From sequence record MZ375256.1: a stretch of DNA of 37,111 nucleotides, one strand, 5' to 3'. A program made the translations under genes and the position numbers. The notes under the pieces were generated by a model. That model was not told where the DNA came from and made no database searches. It saw nothing but the letters and a program-made list of their open reading frames with translations. The DNA is from Escherichia phage T7. This document shows, one piece after another, positions 1 to 37,111 of the stretch. Numbering within the stretch: position 1 is the first letter of the stretch; each line of letters opens with the position of its first letter.

Positions 1-140
1 TCTCACAGTGTACGGACCTAAAGTTCCCCATAGGGGTACCTAAAGCCCAGCCAATCACCTAAAGTCAACCTTCGGTTGACCTTGAGGGTTCCCTAAGGGT
101 TTGTCTTTGGGTGTTACCTTGAGTGTCTCTCTGTGTCCCT
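1..140. repeat. Left direct terminal repeat (identical copy at 36972-37111)
   Basis: First 140 nt are repeated exactly at the last 140 nt of the window; T7-type terminal redundancy. Confidence 0.95.
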
Positions 141-2587: not shown

Positions 2588-5239
2588 ATGAACACGATTA
2601 ACATCGCTAAGAACGACTTCTCTGACATCGAACTGGCTGCTATCCCGTTCAACACTCTGGCTGACCATTACGGTGAGCGTTTAGCTCGCGAACAGTTGGC
2701 CCTTGAGCATGAGTCTTACGAGATGGGTGAAGCACGCTTCCGCAAGATGTTTGAGCGTCAACTTAAAGCTGGTGAGGTTGCGGATAACGCTGCCGCCAAG
2801 CCTCTCATCACTACCCTACTCCCTAAGATGATTGCACGCATCAACGACTGGTTTGAGGAAGTGAAAGCTAAGCGCGGCAAGCGCCCGACAGCCTTCCAGT
2901 TCCTGCAAGAAATCAAGCCGGAAGCCGTAGCGTACATCACCATTAAGACCACTCTGGCTTGCCTAACCAGTGCTGACAATACAACCGTTCAGGCTGTAGC
3001 AAGCGCAATCGGTCGGGCCATTGAGGACGAGGCTCGCTTCGGTCGTATCCGTGACCTTGAAGCTAAGCACTTCAAGAAAAACGTTGAGGAACAACTCAAC
3101 AAGCGCGTAGGGCACGTCTACAAGAAAGCATTTATGCGAGTTGTCGAGGCTGACATGCTCTCTAAGGGTCTACTCGGTGGCGAGGCGTGGTCTTCGTGGC
3201 ATAAGGAAGACTCTATTCATGTAGGAGTACGCTGCATCGAGATGCTCATTGAGTCAACCGGAATGGTTAGCTTACACCGCCAAAATGCTGGCGTAGTAGG
3301 TCAAGACTCTGAGACTATCGAACTCGCACCTGAATACGCTGAGGCTATCGCAACCCGTGCAGGTGCGCTGGCTGGCATCTCTCCGATGTTCCAACCTTGC
3401 GTAGTTCCTCCTAAGCCGTGGACTGGCATTACTGGTGGTGGCTATTGGGCTAACGGTCGTCGTCCTCTGGCGCTGGTGCGTACTCACAGTAAGAAAGCAC
3501 TGATGCGCTACGAAGACGTTTACATGCCTGAGGTGTACAAAGCGATTAACATTGCGCAAAACACCGCATGGAAAATCAACAAGAAAGTCCTAGCGGTCGC
3601 CAACGTAATCACCAAGTGGAAGCATTGTCCGGTCGAGGACATCCCTGCGATTGAGCGTGAAGAACTCCCGATGAAACCGGAAGACATCGACATGAATCCT
3701 GAGGCTCTCACCGCGTGGAAACGTGCTGCCGCTGCTGTGTACCGCAAGGACAAGGCTCGCAAGTCTCGCCGTATCAGCCTTGAGTTCATGCTTGAGCAAG
3801 CCAATAAGTTTGCTAACCATAAGGCCATCTGGTTCCCTTACAACATGGACTGGCGCGGTCGTGTTTACGCTGTGTCAATGTTCAACCCGCAAGGTAACGA
3901 TATGACCAAAGGACTGCTTACGCTGGCGAAAGGTAAACCAATCGGTAAGGAAGGTTACTACTGGCTGAAAATCCACGGTGCAAACTGTGCGGGTGTCGAT
4001 AAGGTTCCGTTCCCTGAGCGCATCAAGTTCATTGAGGAAAACCACGAGAACATCATGGCTTGCGCTAAGTCTCCACTGGAGAACACTTGGTGGGCTGAGC
4101 AAGATTCTCCGTTCTGCTTCCTTGCGTTCTGCTTTGAGTACGCTGGGGTACAGCACCACGGCCTGAGCTATAACTGCTCCCTTCCGCTGGCGTTTGACGG
4201 GTCTTGCTCTGGCATCCAGCACTTCTCCGCGATGCTCCGAGATGAGGTAGGTGGTCGCGCGGTTAACTTGCTTCCTAGTGAAACCGTTCAGGACATCTAC
4301 GGGATTGTTGCTAAGAAAGTCAACGAGATTCTACAAGCAGACGCAATCAATGGGACCGATAACGAAGTAGTTACCGTGACCGATGAGAACACTGGTGAAA
4401 TCTCTGAGAAAGTCAAGCTGGGCACTAAGGCACTGGCTGGTCAATGGCTGGCTTACGGTGTTACTCGCAGTGTGACTAAGCGTTCAGTCATGACGCTGGC
4501 TTACGGGTCCAAAGAGTTCGGCTTCCGTCAACAAGTGCTGGAAGATACCATTCAGCCAGCTATTGATTCCGGCAAGGGTCTGATGTTCACTCAGCCGAAT
4601 CAGGCTGCTGGATACATGGCTAAGCTGATTTGGGAATCTGTGAGCGTGACGGTGGTAGCTGCGGTTGAAGCAATGAACTGGCTTAAGTCTGCTGCTAAGC
4701 TGCTGGCTGCTGAGGTCAAAGATAAGAAGACTGGAGAGATTCTTCGCAAGCGTTGCGCTGTGCATTGGGTAACTCCTGATGGTTTCCCTGTGTGGCAGGA
4801 ATACAAGAAGCCTATTCAGACGCGCTTGAACCTGATGTTCCTCGGTCAGTTCCGCTTACAGCCTACCATTAACACCAACAAAGATAGCGAGATTGATGCA
4901 CACAAACAGGAGTCTGGTATCGCTCCTAACTTTGTACACAGCCAAGACGGTAGCCACCTTCGTAAGACTGTAGTGTGGGCACACGAGAAGTACGGAATCG
5001 AATCTTTTGCACTGATTCACGACTCCTTCGGTACCATTCCGGCTGACGCTGCGAACCTGTTCAAAGCAGTGCGCGAAACTATGGTTGACACATATGAGTC
5101 TTGTGATGTACTGGCTGATTTCTACGACCAGTTCGCTGACCAGTTGCACGAGTCTCAATTGGACAAAATGCCAGCACTTCCGGCTAAAGGTAACTTGAAC
5201 CTCCGTGACATCTTAGAGTCGGACTTCGCGTTCGCGTAA
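2588..5239 (+). CDS. 1: T7 DNA-directed RNA polymerase
   Basis: 883-aa ORF, recognisable as single-subunit T7 RNAP (starts MNTINIAKNDFSDIELAAIPFNTLADHYGERLAREQLALEHESYEMGEARFRKMFERQLK...). Confidence 0.98.
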   Translation: MNTINIAKNDFSDIELAAIPFNTLADHYGERLAREQLALEHESYEMGEARFRKMFERQLKAGEVADNAAAKPLITTLLPKMIARINDWFEEVKAKRGKRPTAFQFLQEIKPEAVAYITIKTTLACLTSADNTTVQAVASAIGRAIEDEARFGRIRDLEAKHFKKNVEEQLNKRVGHVYKKAFMRVVEADMLSKGLLGGEAWSSWHKEDSIHVGVRCIEMLIESTGMVSLHRQNAGVVGQDSETIELAPEYAEAIATRAGALAGISPMFQPCVVPPKPWTGITGGGYWANGRRPLALVRTHSKKALMRYEDVYMPEVYKAINIAQNTAWKINKKVLAVANVITKWKHCPVEDIPAIEREELPMKPEDIDMNPEALTAWKRAAAAVYRKDKARKSRRISLEFMLEQANKFANHKAIWFPYNMDWRGRVYAVSMFNPQGNDMTKGLLTLAKGKPIGKEGYYWLKIHGANCAGVDKVPFPERIKFIEENHENIMACAKSPLENTWWAEQDSPFCFLAFCFEYAGVQHHGLSYNCSLPLAFDGSCSGIQHFSAMLRDEVGGRAVNLLPSETVQDIYGIVAKKVNEILQADAINGTDNEVVTVTDENTGEISEKVKLGTKALAGQWLAYGVTRSVTKRSVMTLAYGSKEFGFRQQVLEDTIQPAIDSGKGLMFTQPNQAAGYMAKLIWESVSVTVVAAVEAMNWLKSAAKLLAAEVKDKKTGEILRKRCAVHWVTPDGFPVWQEYKKPIQTRLNLMFLGQFRLQPTINTNKDSEIDAHKQESGIAPNFVHSQDGSHLRKTVVWAHEKYGIESFALIHDSFGTIPADAANLFKAVRETMVDTYESCDVLADFYDQFADQLHESQLDKMPALPAKGNLNLRDILESDFAFA

Positions 5240-7427: not shown

Positions 7428-8009
7428 TGGGACTGTTAGATGGTGAAGCCTGGGAAAAAGAAAACCCGCCAGTACAAGCAACTGGGTGTATAGCTTGCTT
7501 AGAGAAAGATGACCGTTATCCACACACCTGTAACAAAGGAGCTAACGATATGACCGAACGTGAACAAGAGATGATCATTAAGTTGATAGACAATAATGAA
7601 GGTCGCCCAGATGATTTGAATGGCTGCGGTATTCTCTGCTCCAATGTCCCTTGCCACCTCTGCCCCGCAAATAACGATCAAAAGATAACCTTAGGTGAAA
7701 TCCGAGCGATGGACCCACGTAAACCACATCTGAATAAACCTGAGGTAACTCCTACAGATGACCAGCCTTCCGCTGAGACAATCGAAGGTGTCACTAAGCC
7801 TTCCCACTACATGCTGTTTGACGACATTGAGGCTATCGAAGTGATTGCTCGTTCAATGACCGTTGAGCAGTTCAAGGGATACTGCTTCGGTAACATCTTA
7901 AAGTACAGACTACGTGCTGGTAAGAAGTCAGAGTTAGCGTACTTAGAGAAAGACCTAGCGAAAGCAGACTTCTATAAAGAACTCTTTGAGAAACATAAGG
8001 ATAAATGTT

Positions 8010-10422: not shown

Positions 10423-12234
<1,812 letters not shown>

Positions 12235-12302
12235 CAGGATTCTTGACAGTTGTTTCATATGAAGAGATTGTTAAGTCACGATAATCAATAGGAGAAATCA
12301 AT

Positions 12303-14417
12303 ATGATCGTTTCTGACATCGAAGCTAACGCCCTCTTAGAGAGCGTCACTAAGTTCCACTGCGGGGTTATCTACGACTACTCCACCGCTGAGTACGTAAG
12401 CTACCGTCCGAGTGACTTCGGTGCGTATCTGGATGCGCTGGAAGCCGAGGTTGCACGAGGCGGTCTTATTGTGTTCCACAACGGTCACAAGTATGACGTT
12501 CCTGCATTGACCAAACTGGCAAAGTTGCAATTGAACCGAGAGTTCCACCTTCCTCGTGAGAACTGTATTGACACCCTTGTGTTGTCACGTTTGATTCATT
12601 TCAACCTCAAGGACACCGATATGGGTCTTCTGCGTTCCGGCAAGTTGCCCGGAAAACGCTTTGGGTCTCACGCTTTGGAGGCGTGGGGTTATCGCTTAGG
12701 CGAGATGAAGGGTGAATACAAAGACGACTTTAAGCGTATGCTTGAAGAGCAGGGTGAAGAATACGTTGACGGAATGGAGTGGTGGAACTTCAACGAAGAG
12801 ATGATGGACTATAACGTTCAGGACGTTGTGGTAACTAAAGCTCTCCTTGAGAAGCTACTCTCTGACAAACATTACTTCCCTCCTGAGATTGACTTTACGG
12901 ACGTAGGATACACTACGTTCTGGTCAGAATCCCTTGAGGCCGTTGACATTGAACATCGTGCTGCATGGCTGCTCGCTAAACAAGAGCGCAACGGGTTCCC
13001 GTTTGACACAAAAGCAATCGAAGAGTTGTACGTAGAGTTAGCTGCTCGCCGCTCTGAGTTGCTCCGTAAATTGACCGAAACGTTCGGCTCGTGGTATCAG
13101 CCTAAAGGTGGCACTGAGATGTTCTGCCATCCGCGAACAGGTAAGCCACTACCTAAATACCCTCGCATTAAGACACCTAAAGTTGGTGGTATCTTTAAGA
13201 AGCCTAAGAACAAGGCACAGCGAGAAGGCCGTGAGCCTTGCGAACTTGATACCCGCGAGTACGTTGCTGGTGCTCCTTACACCCCAGTTGAACATGTTGT
13301 GTTTAACCCTTCGTCTCGTGACCACATTCAGAAGAAACTCCAAGAGGCTGGGTGGGTCCCGACCAAGTACACCGATAAGGGTGCTCCTGTGGTGGACGAT
13401 GAGGTACTCGAAGGAGTACGTGTAGATGACCCTGAGAAGCAAGCCGCTATCGACCTCATTAAAGAGTACTTGATGATTCAGAAGCGAATCGGACAGTCTG
13501 CTGAGGGAGACACAGCATGGCTTCGTTATGTTGCTGAGGATGGTAAGATTCATGGTTCTGTTAACCCTAATGGAGCAGTTACGGGTCGTGCGACCCATGC
13601 GTTCCCAAACCTTGCGCAAATTCCGGGTGTACGTTCTCCTTATGGAGAGCAGTGTCGCGCTGCTTTTGGCGCTGAGCACCATTTGGATGGGATAACTGGT
13701 AAGCCTTGGGTTCAGGCTGGCATCGACGCATCCGGTCTTGAGCTACGCTGCTTGGCTCACTTCATGGCTCGCTTTGATAACGGCGAGTACGCTCACGAGA
13801 TTCTTAACGGCGACATCCACACTAAGAACCAGATAGCTGCTGAACTACCTACCCGAGATAACGCTAAGACGTTCATCTATGGGTTCCTCTATGGTGCTGG
13901 TGATGAGAAGATTGGACAGATTGTTGGTGCTGGTAAAGAGCGCGGTAAGGAACTCAAGAAGAAATTCCTTGAGAACACCCCCGCGATTGCAGCACTCCGC
14001 GAGTCTATCCAACAGACACTTGTCGAGTCCTCTCAATGGGTAGCTGGTGAGCAACAAGTCAAGTGGAAACGCCGCTGGATTAAAGGTCTGGATGGTCGTA
14101 AGGTACACGTTCGTAGTCCTCACGCTGCCTTGAATACCCTACTGCAATCTGCTGGTGCTCTCATCTGCAAACTGTGGATTATCAAGACCGAAGAGATGCT
14201 CGTAGAGAAAGGCTTGAAGCATGGCTGGGATGGGGACTTTGCGTACATGGCATGGGTACATGATGAAATCCAAGTAGGCTGCCGTACCGAAGAGATTGCT
14301 CAGGTGGTCATTGAGACCGCACAAGAAGCGATGCGCTGGGTTGGAGACCACTGGAACTTCCGGTGTCTTCTGGATACCGAAGGTAAGATGGGTCCTAATT
14401 GGGCGATTTGCCACTGA
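12303..14417 (+). CDS. 5: DNA polymerase
   Basis: 704-aa ORF, family A polymerase with 3'-5' exonuclease domain. Confidence 0.98.
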
Positions 14418-14462
14418 TACAGGAGGCTACTCCAAAGGCATAAAACTATAGGAGAAATTATT

Positions 14463-14762
14463 ATGGCTATGACAAAGAAATTTAAAGTGTCCTTCGACGT
14501 TACCGCAAAGATGTCGTCTGACGTTCAGGCAATCTTAGAGAAAGATATGCTGCATCTATGTAAGCAGGTCGGCTCAGGTGCGATTGTCCCCAATGGTAAA
14601 CAGAAGGAAATGATTGTCCAGTTCCTGACACACGGTATGGAAGGATTGATGACATTCGTAGTACGTACATCATTTCGTGAGGCCATTAAGGACATGCACG
14701 AAGAGTATGCAGATAAGGACTCTTTCAAACAATCTCCTGCAACAGTACGGGAGGTGTTCTGA
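14463..14762 (+). CDS. 5.5: Gp5.5, H-NS binding protein
   Basis: 99-aa ORF. Confidence 0.9.
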   Translation: MAMTKKFKVSFDVTAKMSSDVQAILEKDMLHLCKQVGSGAIVPNGKQKEMIVQFLTHGMEGLMTFVVRTSFREAIKDMHEEYADKDSFKQSPATVREVF

Positions 14763-14971
14763 TGTCTGACTACCTGAAAGTGCTGCAAGCAATCAAAAGT
14801 TGCCCTAAGACTTTCCAGTCCAACTATGTACGGAACAATGCGAGCCTCGTAGCGGAGGCCGCTTCCCGTGGTCACATCTCGTGCCTGACTACTAGTGGAC
14901 GTAACGGTGGCGCTTGGGAAATCACTGCTTCCGGTACTCGCTTTCTGAAACGAATGGGAGGATGTGTCTAA
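14762..14971 (+). CDS. 5.7: Gp5.7
   Basis: 69-aa ORF. Confidence 0.85.
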   Translation: MSDYLKVLQAIKSCPKTFQSNYVRNNASLVAEAASRGHISCLTTSGRNGGAWEITASGTRFLKRMGGCV

Positions 14972-15129
14972 TGTCTCGTGACCTTGTGACTATTCCACGC
15001 GATGTGTGGAACGATATACAGGGCTACATCGACTCTCTGGAACGTGAGAACGATAGCCTTAAGAATCAACTAATGGAAGCTGACGAATACGTAGCGGAAC
15101 TAGAGGAGAAACTTAATGGCACTTCTTGA
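14971..15129 (+). CDS. 5.9: Gp5.9, RecBCD inhibitor
   Basis: 52-codon ORF MSRDLVTIPRDVWNDIQGYIDSLERENDSLKNQLMEADEYVAELEEKLNGTS. Confidence 0.8.
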   Translation: MSRDLVTIPRDVWNDIQGYIDSLERENDSLKNQLMEADEYVAELEEKLNGTS

Positions 15130-16018
15130 CCTTAAACAATTCTATGAGTTACGTGAAGGCTGCGACGACAAGGGTATCCTTGTGATGGACGGCGACTGGC
15201 TGGTCTTCCAAGCTATGAGTGCTGCTGAGTTTGATGCCTCTTGGGAGGAAGAGATTTGGCACCGATGCTGTGACCACGCTAAGGCCCGTCAGATTCTTGA
15301 GGATTCCATTAAGTCCTACGAGACCCGTAAGAAGGCTTGGGCAGGTGCTCCAATTGTCCTTGCGTTCACCGATAGTGTTAACTGGCGTAAAGAACTGGTT
15401 GACCCGAACTATAAGGCTAACCGTAAGGCCGTGAAGAAACCTGTAGGGTACTTTGAGTTCCTTGATGCTCTCTTTGAGCGCGAAGAGTTCTATTGCATCC
15501 GTGAGCCTATGCTTGAGGGTGATGACGTTATGGGAGTTATTGCTTCCAATCCGTCTGCCTTCGGTGCTCGTAAGGCTGTAATCATCTCTTGCGATAAGGA
15601 CTTTAAGACCATCCCTAACTGTGACTTCCTGTGGTGTACCACTGGTAACATCCTGACTCAGACCGAAGAGTCCGCTGACTGGTGGCACCTCTTCCAGACC
15701 ATCAAGGGTGACATCACTGATGGTTACTCAGGGATTGCTGGATGGGGTGATACCGCCGAGGACTTCTTGAATAACCCGTTCATAACCGAGCCTAAAACGT
15801 CTGTGCTTAAGTCCGGTAAGAACAAAGGCCAAGAGGTTACTAAATGGGTTAAACGCGACCCTGAGCCTCATGAGACGCTTTGGGACTGCATTAAGTCCAT
15901 TGGCGCGAAGGCTGGTATGACCGAAGAGGATATTATCAAGCAGGGCCAAATGGCTCGAATCCTACGGTTCAACGAGTACAACTTTATTGACAAGGAGATT
16001 TACCTGTGGAGACCGTAG
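15116..16018 (+). CDS. 6: 5'-3' exonuclease
   Basis: 300-aa ORF. Confidence 0.95.
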   Translation: MALLDLKQFYELREGCDDKGILVMDGDWLVFQAMSAAEFDASWEEEIWHRCCDHAKARQILEDSIKSYETRKKAWAGAPIVLAFTDSVNWRKELVDPNYKANRKAVKKPVGYFEFLDALFEREEFYCIREPMLEGDDVMGVIASNPSAFGARKAVIISCDKDFKTIPNCDFLWCTTGNILTQTEESADWWHLFQTIKGDITDGYSGIAGWGDTAEDFLNNPFITEPKTSVLKSGKNKGQEVTKWVKRDPEPHETLWDCIKSIGAKAGMTEEDIIKQGQMARILRFNEYNFIDKEIYLWRP

Positions 16019-16216: not shown

Positions 16217-16471
16217 ATGTTAACACCTATTAACCAATTACTTAAGAACCCTAACGATATTCCAGATGTACCTCGTGCAACCGCTGAGTATCTACAGGTT
16301 CGATTCAACTATGCGTACCTCGAAGCGTCTGGTCATATAGGACTTATGCGTGCTAATGGTTGTAGTGAGGCCCACATCTTGGGTTTCATTCAGGGCCTAC
16401 AGTATGCCTCTAACGTCATTGACGAGATTGAGTTACGCAAGGAACAACTAAGAGATGATGGGGAGGATTGA
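16217..16471 (+). CDS. 6.5: Gp6.5
   Basis: 84-aa ORF. Confidence 0.85.
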
Positions 16472-16475
16472 CACT

Positions 16476-16742
16476 ATGTGTTTCTCACCGAAAATTAAAA
16501 CTCCGAAGATGGATACCAATCAGATTCGAGCCGTTGAGCCAGCGCCTCTGACCCAAGAAGTGTCAAGCGTGGAGTTCGGTGGGTCTTCTGATGAGACGGA
16601 TACCGAGGGCACCGAAGTGTCTGGACGCAAAGGCCTCAAGGTCGAACGTGATGATTCCGTAGCGAAGTCTAAAGCCAGCGGCAATGGCTCCGCTCGTATG
16701 AAATCTTCCATCCGTAAGTCCGCATTTGGAGGTAAGAAGTGA
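16476..16742 (+). CDS. 6.7: Gp6.7 virion protein
   Basis: 88-aa ORF from MCFSPKIKTPK. Confidence 0.85.
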   Translation: MCFSPKIKTPKMDTNQIRAVEPAPLTQEVSSVEFGGSSDETDTEGTEVSGRKGLKVERDDSVAKSKASGNGSARMKSSIRKSAFGGKK

Positions 16743-17143
16743 TGTCTGAGTTCACATGTGTGGAGGCTAAGAGTCGCTTCCGTGCAATCCGGTGGACTGT
16801 GGAACACCTTGGGTTGCCTAAAGGATTCGAAGGACACTTTGTGGGCTACAGCCTCTACGTAGACGAAGTGATGGACATGTCTGGTTGCCGTGAAGAGTAC
16901 ATTCTGGACTCTACCGGAAAACATGTAGCGTACTTCGCGTGGTGCGTAAGCTGTGACATTCACCACAAAGGAGACATTCTGGATGTAACGTCCGTTGTCA
17001 TTAATCCTGAGGCAGACTCTAAGGGCTTACAGCGATTCCTAGCGAAACGCTTTAAGTACCTTGCGGAACTCCACGATTGCGATTGGGTGTCTCGTTGTAA
17101 GCATGAAGGCGAGACAATGCGTGTATACTTTAAGGAGGTATAA
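16742..17143 (+). CDS. 7: Gp7 virion/host-range protein
   Basis: 133-aa ORF. Confidence 0.85.
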   Translation: MSEFTCVEAKSRFRAIRWTVEHLGLPKGFEGHFVGYSLYVDEVMDMSGCREEYILDSTGKHVAYFAWCVSCDIHHKGDILDVTSVVINPEADSKGLQRFLAKRFKYLAELHDCDWVSRCKHEGETMRVYFKEV

Positions 17144-28206: not shown

Positions 28207-31200
28207 ATGGATAAGTACGATAAGAACGTACCAAGTGATTATGATGGTCTGTTCCAAAAGGCTGCTGATGCCAACGGGGTCTCTTATGACCTTTTACGTA
28301 AAGTCGCTTGGACAGAATCACGATTTGTGCCTACAGCAAAATCTAAGACTGGACCATTAGGCATGATGCAATTTACCAAGGCAACCGCTAAGGCCCTCGG
28401 TCTGCGAGTTACCGATGGTCCAGACGACGACCGACTGAACCCTGAGTTAGCTATTAATGCTGCCGCTAAGCAACTTGCAGGTCTGGTAGGGAAGTTTGAT
28501 GGCGATGAACTCAAAGCTGCCCTTGCGTACAACCAAGGCGAGGGACGCTTGGGTAATCCACAACTTGAGGCGTACTCTAAGGGAGACTTCGCATCAATCT
28601 CTGAGGAGGGACGTAACTACATGCGTAACCTTCTGGATGTTGCTAAGTCACCTATGGCTGGACAGTTGGAAACTTTTGGTGGCATAACCCCAAAGGGTAA
28701 AGGCATTCCGGCTGAGGTAGGATTGGCTGGAATTGGTCACAAGCAGAAAGTAACACAGGAACTTCCTGAGTCCACAAGTTTTGACGTTAAGGGTATCGAA
28801 CAGGAGGCTACGGCGAAACCATTCGCCAAGGACTTTTGGGAGACCCACGGAGAAACACTTGACGAGTACAACAGTCGTTCAACCTTCTTCGGATTCAAAA
28901 ATGCTGCCGAAGCTGAACTCTCCAACTCAGTCGCTGGGATGGCTTTCCGTGCTGGTCGTCTCGATAATGGTTTTGATGTGTTTAAAGACACCATTACGCC
29001 GACTCGCTGGAACTCTCACATCTGGACTCCAGAGGAGTTAGAGAAGATTCGAACAGAGGTTAAGAACCCTGCGTACATCAACGTTGTAACTGGTGGTTCC
29101 CCTGAGAACCTCGATGACCTCATTAAATTGGCTAACGAGAACTTTGAGAATGACTCCCGCGCTGCCGAGGCTGGCCTAGGTGCCAAACTGAGTGCTGGTA
29201 TTATTGGTGCTGGTGTGGACCCGCTTAGCTATGTTCCTATGGTCGGTGTCACTGGTAAGGGCTTTAAGTTAATCAATAAGGCTCTTGTAGTTGGTGCCGA
29301 AAGTGCTGCTCTGAACGTTGCATCCGAAGGTCTCCGTACCTCCGTAGCTGGTGGTGACGCAGACTATGCGGGTGCTGCCTTAGGTGGCTTTGTGTTTGGC
29401 GCAGGCATGTCTGCAATCAGTGACGCTGTAGCTGCTGGACTGAAACGCAGTAAACCAGAAGCTGAGTTCGACAATGAGTTCATCGGTCCTATGATGCGAT
29501 TGGAAGCCCGTGAGACAGCACGAAACGCCAACTCTGCGGACCTCTCTCGGATGAACACTGAGAACATGAAGTTTGAAGGTGAACATAATGGTGTCCCTTA
29601 TGAGGACTTACCAACAGAGAGAGGTGCCGTGGTGTTACATGATGGCTCCGTTCTAAGTGCAAGCAACCCAATCAACCCTAAGACTCTAAAAGAGTTCTCC
29701 GAGGTTGACCCTGAGAAGGCTGCGCGAGGAATCAAACTGGCTGGGTTCACCGAGATTGGCTTGAAGACCTTGGGGTCTGACGATGCTGACATCCGTAGAG
29801 TGGCTATCGACCTCGTTCGCTCTCCTACTGGTATGCAGTCTGGTGCCTCAGGTAAGTTCGGTGCAACAGCTTCTGACATCCATGAGAGACTTCATGGTAC
29901 TGACCAGCGTACTTATAATGACTTGTACAAAGCAATGTCTGACGCTATGAAAGACCCTGAGTTCTCTACTGGCGGCGCTAAGATGTCCCGTGAAGAAACT
30001 CGATACACTATCTACCGTAGAGCGGCACTAGCTATTGAGCGTCCAGAACTACAGAAGGCACTCACTCCGTCTGAGAGAATCGTTATGGACATCATTAAGC
30101 GTCACTTTGACACCAAGCGTGAACTTATGGAAAACCCAGCAATATTCGGTAACACAAAGGCTGTGAGTATCTTCCCTGAGAGTCGCCACAAAGGTACTTA
30201 CGTTCCTCACGTATATGACCGTCATGCCAAGGCGCTGATGATTCAACGCTACGGTGCCGAAGGTTTGCAGGAAGGGATTGCCCGCTCATGGATGAACAGC
30301 TACGTCTCCAGACCTGAGGTCAAGGCCAGAGTCGATGAGATGCTTAAGGAATTACACGGGGTGAAGGAAGTAACACCAGAGATGGTAGAGAAGTACGCTA
30401 TGGATAAGGCTTATGGTATCTCCCACTCAGACCAGTTCACCAACAGTTCCATAATAGAAGAGAACATTGAGGGCTTAGTAGGTATCGAGAATAACTCATT
30501 CCTTGAGGCACGTAACTTGTTTGATTCGGACCTATCCATCACTATGCCAGACGGACAGCAATTCTCAGTGAATGACCTAAGGGACTTCGATATGTTCCGC
30601 ATCATGCCAGCGTATGACCGCTGTGTCAATAGTGACATCGCCATCATGGGGTCTACTGGTAAAACCACTAAGGAACTTAAGGATGAGATTTTGGCTCTCA
30701 AAGCGAAAGCTGAGGGAGACGGTAAGAAGACTGGCGAGGTACATGCTTTAATGGATACCGTTAAGATTCTTACTGGTCGTGCTAGACGCAATCAGGACAC
30801 TGTGTGGGAAACCTCACTGCGTGCCATCAATGACCTAGGGTTCTTCGCTAAGAACGCCTACATGGGTGCTCAGAACATTACGGAGATTGCTGGGATGATT
30901 GTCACTGGTAACGTTCGTGCTCTAGGGCATGGTATCCCAATTCTGCGTGATACACTCTACAAGTCTAAACCAGTTTCAGCTAAGGAACTCAAGGAACTCC
31001 ATGCGTCTCTGTTCGGGAAGGAGGTGGACCAGTTGATTCGGCCTAAACGTGCTGACATTGTGCAGCGCCTAAGGGAAGCAACTGATACCGGACCTGCCGT
31101 GGCGAACATCGTAGGGACCTTGAAGTATTCAACACAGGAACTGGCTGCTCGCTCTCCGTGGACTAAGCTACTGAACGGAACCACTAACTACCTTCTGGAT

Positions 31201-32163
31201 GCTGCGCGTCAAGGTATGCTTGGGGATGTTATTAGTGCCACCCTAACAGGTAAGACTACCCGCTGGGAGAAAGAAGGCTTCCTTCGTGGTGCCTCCGTAA
31301 CTCCTGAGCAGATGGCTGGCATCAAGTCTCTCATCAAGGAACATATGGTACGCGGTGAGGACGGGAAGTTTACCGTTAAGGACAAGCAAGCGTTCTCTAT
31401 GGACCCACGGGCTATGGACTTATGGAGACTGGCTGACAAGGTAGCTGATGAGGCAATGCTGCGTCCACATAAGGTGTCCTTACAGGATTCCCATGCGTTC
31501 GGAGCACTAGGTAAGATGGTTATGCAGTTTAAGTCTTTCACTATCAAGTCCCTTAACTCTAAGTTCCTGCGAACCTTCTATGATGGATACAAGAACAACC
31601 GAGCGATTGACGCTGCGCTGAGCATCATCACCTCTATGGGTCTCGCTGGTGGTTTCTATGCTATGGCTGCACACGTCAGAGCATACGCTCTGCCTAAGGA
31701 GAAACGTAAGGAGTACTTGGAGCGTGCACTGGACCCAACCATGATTGCCCACGCTGCGTTATCTCGTAGTTCTCAATTGGGTGTTCCTTTGGCTATGGTT
31801 GACCTAGTTGGTGGTGTTTTAGGGTTCGAGTCCTCCAAGATGGCTCGCTCTACGATTCTACCTAAGGACACCGTGAAGGAACGTGACCCAAACAAACCGT
31901 ACACCTCTAGAGAGGTAATGGGCGCTATGGGTTCAAACCTTCTGGAACAGATGCCTTCGGCTGGCTTTGTGGCTAACGTAGGGGCTACCTTAATGAATGC
32001 TGCTGGCGTGGTCAACTCACCTAATAAAGCAACCGAGCAGGACTTCATGACTGGTCTTATGAACTCCACAAAAGAGTTAGTACCGAACGACCCATTGACT
32101 CAACAGCTTGTGTTGAAGATTTATGAGGCGAACGGTGTTAACTTGAGGGAGCGTAGGAAATAA
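28207..32163 (+). CDS. 16: Internal core protein gp16 with N-terminal lytic transglycosylase domain
   Basis: 1318-aa ORF; SLT-like segment TESRFVPTAKSKTGPLGMMQFTKATAKALGL near the N-terminus. Confidence 0.95.
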   Translation: MDKYDKNVPSDYDGLFQKAADANGVSYDLLRKVAWTESRFVPTAKSKTGPLGMMQFTKATAKALGLRVTDGPDDDRLNPELAINAAAKQLAGLVGKFDGDELKAALAYNQGEGRLGNPQLEAYSKGDFASISEEGRNYMRNLLDVAKSPMAGQLETFGGITPKGKGIPAEVGLAGIGHKQKVTQELPESTSFDVKGIEQEATAKPFAKDFWETHGETLDEYNSRSTFFGFKNAAEAELSNSVAGMAFRAGRLDNGFDVFKDTITPTRWNSHIWTPEELEKIRTEVKNPAYINVVTGGSPENLDDLIKLANENFENDSRAAEAGLGAKLSAGIIGAGVDPLSYVPMVGVTGKGFKLINKALVVGAESAALNVASEGLRTSVAGGDADYAGAALGGFVFGAGMSAISDAVAAGLKRSKPEAEFDNEFIGPMMRLEARETARNANSADLSRMNTENMKFEGEHNGVPYEDLPTERGAVVLHDGSVLSASNPINPKTLKEFSEVDPEKAARGIKLAGFTEIGLKTLGSDDADIRRVAIDLVRSPTGMQSGASGKFGATASDIHERLHGTDQRTYNDLYKAMSDAMKDPEFSTGGAKMSREETRYTIYRRAALAIERPELQKALTPSERIVMDIIKRHFDTKRELMENPAIFGNTKAVSIFPESRHKGTYVPHVYDRHAKALMIQRYGAEGLQEGIARSWMNSYVSRPEVKARVDEMLKELHGVKEVTPEMVEKYAMDKAYGISHSDQFTNSSIIEENIEGLVGIENNSFLEARNLFDSDLSITMPDGQQFSVNDLRDFDMFRIMPAYDRCVNSDIAIMGSTGKTTKELKDEILALKAKAEGDGKKTGEVHALMDTVKILTGRARRNQDTVWETSLRAINDLGFFAKNAYMGAQNITEIAGMIVTGNVRALGHGIPILRDTLYKSKPVSAKELKELHASLFGKEVDQLIRPKRADIVQRLREATDTGPAVANIVGTLKYSTQELAARSPWTKLLNGTTNYLLDAARQGMLGDVISATLTGKTTRWEKEGFLRGASVTPEQMAGIKSLIKEHMVRGEDGKFTVKDKQAFSMDPRAMDLWRLADKVADEAMLRPHKVSLQDSHAFGALGKMVMQFKSFTIKSLNSKFLRTFYDGYKNNRAIDAALSIITSMGLAGGFYAMAAHVRAYALPKEKRKEYLERALDPTMIAHAALSRSSQLGVPLAMVDLVGGVLGFESSKMARSTILPKDTVKERDPNKPYTSREVMGAMGSNLLEQMPSAGFVANVGATLMNAAGVVNSPNKATEQDFMTGLMNSTKELVPNDPLTQQLVLKIYEANGVNLRERRK

Positions 32164-36771: not shown

Positions 36772-36819
36772 ATGTTCCGCTTATTGTTGAACCTACTGCG
36801 GCATAGAGTCAAGTCCTAA
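36772..36819 (+). pseudogene. 19.5: Gene 19.5 truncated to 15 codons
   Basis: RBS gggaggag then ATG; reads MFRLLLNLLRHRVKS* whereas the canonical gene is about 49 codons; size accounting implies about 189 bp missing here. Confidence 0.5.
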
Positions 36820-36971: not shown

Positions 36972-37111
36972 TCTCACAGTGTACGGACCTAAAGTTCCCC
37001 ATAGGGGTACCTAAAGCCCAGCCAATCACCTAAAGTCAACCTTCGGTTGACCTTGAGGGTTCCCTAAGGGTTTGTCTTTGGGTGTTACCTTGAGTGTCTC
37101 TCTGTGTCCCT
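36972..37111. repeat. Right direct terminal repeat (identical to 1-140)
   Basis: Exact 140-nt match to the window start. Confidence 0.95.

Follow-up and report, generated by a model that had tools for sequence, protein, structure and literature searches.

The question raised by this locus is why the genes 5 and 5.5 of a bacteriophage T7 genome are separated by only 45 bp, in comparison to 383 bp in the wild-type phage. The window, by which the whole analysed stretch of DNA is meant, is a 37,111-bp T7 derivative about 99.9% identical to the reference NC_001604, with which it aligns in eight collinear blocks interrupted by seven deletions. In the sequence-only reading the short interval was regarded as the scar left by removal of gene 5.3, and the absence of T7 positions 16483-16820 from the window bears this out. 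It can be said with a probability of about 95% that the 45-bp spacer is a designed whole-gene deletion of gene 5.3, produced by CiPGr, the CRISPR/Cas9-based iterative genome reduction of Yuan, Shi, Jiang and Ma (Nucleic Acids Res 2022, NAR 50:13183; PMC9825161).

On the left the interval is bordered by an intact gene 5, encoding the DNA polymerase (704 aa; 12303-14417, plus strand), which was recognised from the list of open reading frames and from its identity to T7 gene 5; its TGA stop occupies 14415-14417 and it carries two substitutions relative to NC_001604, S100F and K404T. The right border is the ATG at 14463 of an equally intact gene 5.5 (14463-14762, plus strand), assigned from the open reading frame list and annotation to the H-NS-binding protein of 99 aa. 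The distance between the gene 5 stop and the gene 5.5 start (14418-14462) was found to be exactly 45 bp both in the open reading frame list and by direct reading of the sequence, in agreement with the coordinates and letters given previously (tacaggaggctactc|caaaggcataaaactataggagaaattatt, in continuous form tacaggaggctactccaaaggcataaaactataggagaaattatt). Its first part is the native 15-bp spacer between genes 5 and 5.3 (14418-14432, plus strand; T7 16468-16482), as determined from the sequence and by flank extension, and it still contains the gene 5.3 Shine-Dalgarno motif AGGAGG at 14421-14426, now orphaned and with no start codon downstream. The second part comprises the 3'-terminal 19 nt of gene 5.3 (14433-14451, plus strand; T7 16821-16839), defined by reference annotation and flank extension and closed by the old TAG stop at 14449-14451, followed by the native 11-nt spacer, which gives exactly 30 retained nt before the gene 5.5 ATG. 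The Shine-Dalgarno motif of gene 5.5 (AGGAG, 14450-14454, plus strand), seen directly in the sequence 8 nt 5' of its ATG, overlaps the former gene 5.3 stop codon, and for this reason the stub of gene 5.3 had to be kept. It was claimed that the gene 5.5 ribosome-binding site had been preserved; AGGAG is indeed intact within the 30 retained nt.

The breakpoints were placed by comparison with NC_001604, in which 16467 is the last position of gene 5, gene 5.3 takes up 16483-16839 and the first position of gene 5.5 is 16851. When 1.1 kb around the site was used as a query, wild-type T7 records matched at 100% identity in two pieces, with 1,439 bp of the reference spanned. Base-by-base extension showed that identity of the left flank runs to window position 14432 (T7 16482) and that identity of the right flank begins at 14433 (T7 16821), so the junction at 14432-14433 joins T7 16482 to 16821, and 338 bp (T7 16483-16820) are missing, with a unique placement. 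This is the alignment to the reference that had been suggested as a check, as was an inspection of the breakpoints for microhomology, of which 0 bp was found. The first deleted base is the A of the gene 5.3 ATG, exactly where the retained 5' part had been said to end, and the deletion stops 19 nt short of the end of the gene. Since the sequence on either side agrees with T7 at 100% identity, a chance feature is ruled out.

The same junction is present in deposited mutants. A 54-mer whose 28-base words all cross the gene 5.3 junction was searched against the records of the phage collection and matched 46 of them, all within MZ375249-94 and OL964739-41; no natural phage was among these 46 matches. 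With a 100-bp junction query the listed matches were wild-type T7 only, each in two pieces. All opened records bear the title "Mutant Escherichia phage T7 clone", and the series with the junction includes T7_150L (MZ375261), T7_260S (MZ375284) and T7_240S (MZ375280). The junction coordinate varies from 13630 to 15720 across the matching records, hence the deletions that accompany the junction are combined in many ways. Over its first 25 kb the window gave a one-piece match to several records, including T7_150L, T7_240S and T7_260S, which have the same other deletions over this part, and in T7_240S the junction coordinate equals that of the window. For the last 12 kb there was no one-piece match among the matches listed, and no single record among them has the window's combination with the 18.7 and 19.5 deletions. 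It is by its shared junctions that the window would take a place in this clone series.

In the study of Yuan et al., 200-bp cassettes were synthesised on chips, each comprising a spacer and a 50x2-bp template for homologous recombination, and two types were used: "cassette-gene", removing an entire gene, and "cassette-100", removing 100 bp (PMC9825161). Phage was serially transferred on MG1655 with the library, and large (L) or small (S) plaques were taken every 10 transfers. Genes gp5.3 and gp4.7 served as worked examples, the gp5.3 deletion was detected by PCR in populations, and the gp5.3 mutant rose to dominance (PMC9825161). This study is matched by the clone names, which consist of a transfer number and the L or S of the plaque, by the sizes of the genomes and by the set of genes. 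At the 5.3 locus there is essentially no difference between the window and the CiPGr clones (MZ375249-94, OL964739-41), whose cassette-gene deletion has the identical junction T7 16482|16821, and the method accounts for the scarless boundary keyed to a codon. The other cassette type has left its footprint too: OL964749 (clone T7_1t2) has an exact 100-bp deletion inside gene 5.3 (T7 16642-16741), template-directed like the scar discussed here and made in the same gene and the same study, but there a truncated open reading frame stays, whereas in the window the frame is gone from its ATG on. Gene 5.3 was not mentioned in the PhageMaP preprint (PMC11482910).

The proposed course of events is as follows. 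T7 would have been passaged on E. coli harbouring Cas9 together with a library of plasmids, in which a guide RNA directed at a non-essential gene was paired each time with a repair template of 2x50 bp. Cas9 would cleave within gene 5.3, and recombination with the template would link T7 16482 directly to 16821. Progeny deprived of the target site, with the protospacers lost, would evade further cutting and then take over. The two arms of the repair template would correspond to T7 16433-16482 and 16821-16870, which places its footprint at 14383-14482 (plus strand); this match of template to junction is deduced from the cassette design (PMC9825161) and the junction position rather than read. Such a template would drop the reading frame from its first base and spare the 30 nt before gene 5.5, leaving the ribosome-binding site of the latter functional, and we infer that these 30 nt were retained deliberately in order to preserve gene 5.5 translation. 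The window would then be one clone of the CiPGr series, with additional designed and spontaneous deletions.

The junction has the features of a designed one: it is scarless, placed by gene coordinates and independent of microhomology, it recurs in deposited mutants, and gene 5.3 is among the targets of the library. Zero microhomology taken alone is weak evidence, as about half of random junctions would have it; the deletions of genes 1.4, 3.8 and 18.7 are likewise keyed to codons with 0 bp of microhomology, which supports design. A spontaneous deletion in serial passage, by replication slippage or microhomology-mediated end joining and possibly as a CRISPR escape, is nevertheless conceivable in such a phage, because undesigned fragment losses and CRISPR-escape mutations were reported in the source study (PMC9825161), passaged T7 lines likewise lose non-essential genes spontaneously, for instance in the early region or by microhomology-mediated deletion, and three junctions of this appearance are present in the same genome. 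Their boundaries are independent of genes: the 4.2-4.7 deletion (1,019 bp, T7 13271-14289; window 12240-12246) has 7 bp of microhomology, TTCTTGA, the 19.5 deletion (189 bp, T7 39420-39608; window 36803-36811) has 9 bp, ATAGAGTCA, and extends 70 bp beyond gene 19.5, and the 0.4-0.6 deletion (563 bp, T7 1341-1903; window 1321) has 1 bp. The gene 5.3 junction differs from them in lying on gene boundaries. The short direct repeat required for a microhomology-mediated deletion is absent from its breakpoints (0 bp); the deletion starts on base 1 of the ATG, and what remains before the gene 5.5 ATG is a round 30 nt. Moreover, an identical junction in 46 clones with many different deletion backgrounds, and a whole-gene cassette for gene 5.3 in the published design, argue against a spontaneous origin, which is considered very unlikely. 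In summary of the seven deletions, those of 1.4, 3.8, 5.3 and 18.7 look designed, while 0.4-0.6, 4.2-4.7 and 19.5 look spontaneous and are probably the undesigned CRISPR-escape or slippage events mentioned in the source paper. The earlier view of repeated, near-ORF-precise removal stands to the extent that several such deletions exist, but only four of the seven are keyed to codons.

Two further explanations are less probable still. The locus could be a natural empty site, that is, a wild T7-like phage which never gained the accessory, possibly mobile, endonuclease gene 5.3, and the patchy occurrence of gp5.3 homologues speaks for it: among 50,697 phage records, a homologue is encoded in only 100, most of them T7 itself, in comparison to 691 records that match the surrounding gene 5/5.5 region. 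Such a distribution fits an accessory gene and does not affect the question of the scar's origin. Against an empty site, the 19-nt 3' stub of gene 5.3 with its stop codon remains, the flanks and the genome as a whole are those of T7 to the extent given above, and the 54-mer search found the junction in no natural phage record; the candidate is effectively refuted by the retained stub. An assembly or sequencing artefact collapsing the gene 5.3 region is similarly hard to credit. Nothing specific favours it, apart from small differences in terminal repeat length that could be consensus errors, and it is opposed by breakpoints lacking repeats able to cause a collapse, by the presence of the junction in 46 independently assembled clone genomes and by the positive PCR reported for this deletion in the populations (PMC9825161). 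The designed CiPGr deletion is therefore the explanation adopted here.

It was also stated that gene 5.3 encodes a protein of the HNH family, and this label has to be corrected. T7 gp5.3 matches the Pfam family PDDEXK_5 (PF11645) over residues 5-96 of 118, with E = 1.1e-10 and 42.1 bits against a curated gathering cut-off of 26.1. No HNH model was found among its Pfam matches at E <= 1, the other match in this range being the sub-threshold Rh5. Judged by this profile match, gp5.3 is a PD-(D/E)XK-type endonuclease-like protein and not an HNH one. In T7 the HNH annotation belongs to genes 3.8 and 7.7.

The scar itself is already known, having been published and deposited many times, and its meaning is mainly one of provenance: it marks the window as a T7 that was engineered and reduced in a published CRISPR-based series, and therefore the other scars of this genome call for the same reading rather than one in terms of natural biology. 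Growth on the laboratory host, as the scar confirms, does not depend on gene 5.3. Prediction of RNA folding around the gene 5.5 start gave a probability of being unpaired of 0.52 in the wild type and 0.45 in the mutant for the Shine-Dalgarno motif, and of 0.33 and 0.26, respectively, for the AUG; because the predicted folding differs only slightly, no regulatory claim is made for gene 5.5. It is rather unlikely, though conceivable, that the loss of gp5.3 in itself benefits T7 on E. coli K-12, or is neutral to it, apart from the escape from Cas9. An advantage may come from the removal of a costly PD-(D/E)XK nuclease or from altered gp5.5 translation, as gene 5.5 now stands 45 nt behind gene 5 with an orphan second Shine-Dalgarno motif upstream. 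Either route, if true, would explain the sweep of the gene 5.3 deletion through populations and its fixation in later clones.

The remaining codon-keyed deletions have local effects of their own. Gene 1.4 was lost with the exact boundaries of its coding sequence (T7 7608-7763; window 7024|7025; microhomology 0 bp). Its TAA stop doubles as positions -17 to -15 of the phi1.5 promoter, the start of which now reads TTTTACGACTCACTAAAGGAG, formerly TAATACGACTCAC..., and the promoter may be weakened in consequence of the deletion. The gene 3.8 deletion (T7 11254-11545; microhomology 0 bp) ends 19 nt 5' of the gene 4A ATG. The first 29 nt of gene 3.8 and the 19 nt of upstream sequence are in frame with gene 4A, and therefore the longest open reading frame at 10486-12234 starts at the gene 3.8 ATG and has 582 aa. 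From this reading frame, the primase/helicase may be longer by 16 residues at its N-terminus. The gene 18.7 deletion (T7 37055-37283; window 34666|34667; microhomology 0 bp) looks designed and extends exactly to the final base of the stop codon of this Rz1-like spanin gene. Both spanin genes are disrupted, because it also takes 229 bp lying inside 18.5, encoding the Rz-like spanin.

Apart from the deletions, the window differs from NC_001604 by 20 substitutions (for example at window positions 3138, 12601, 13513, 17183, 17219, 30622-31784 and 32875). All 15 coding substitutions are non-synonymous: Q184R in gene 1, L72R in 2.8, the already mentioned S100F and K404T in gene 5, T13P and R25S in 7.3, A153E in 11, T468A in 12, R806C, G809S, K1158R and A1193V in 16, K214E in 17 and N31T in 19. 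Such a pattern suggests that selection acted in the course of prolonged serial passage, or else that the parental stock already differed. Each copy of the terminal repeat (window 1-100 and 36972-37072) is 20 bp shorter than in the reference, with the loss of single bases at T7 26 and 34 and of 18 bp at T7 99-116, and the right end is changed alike; these differences may be real variants or consensus errors. Annotated start positions of two promoters are substituted as well, namely that of phiOL (A>G, window 385, T7 405) and that of phi10 (G>T, window 20516, T7 22904).
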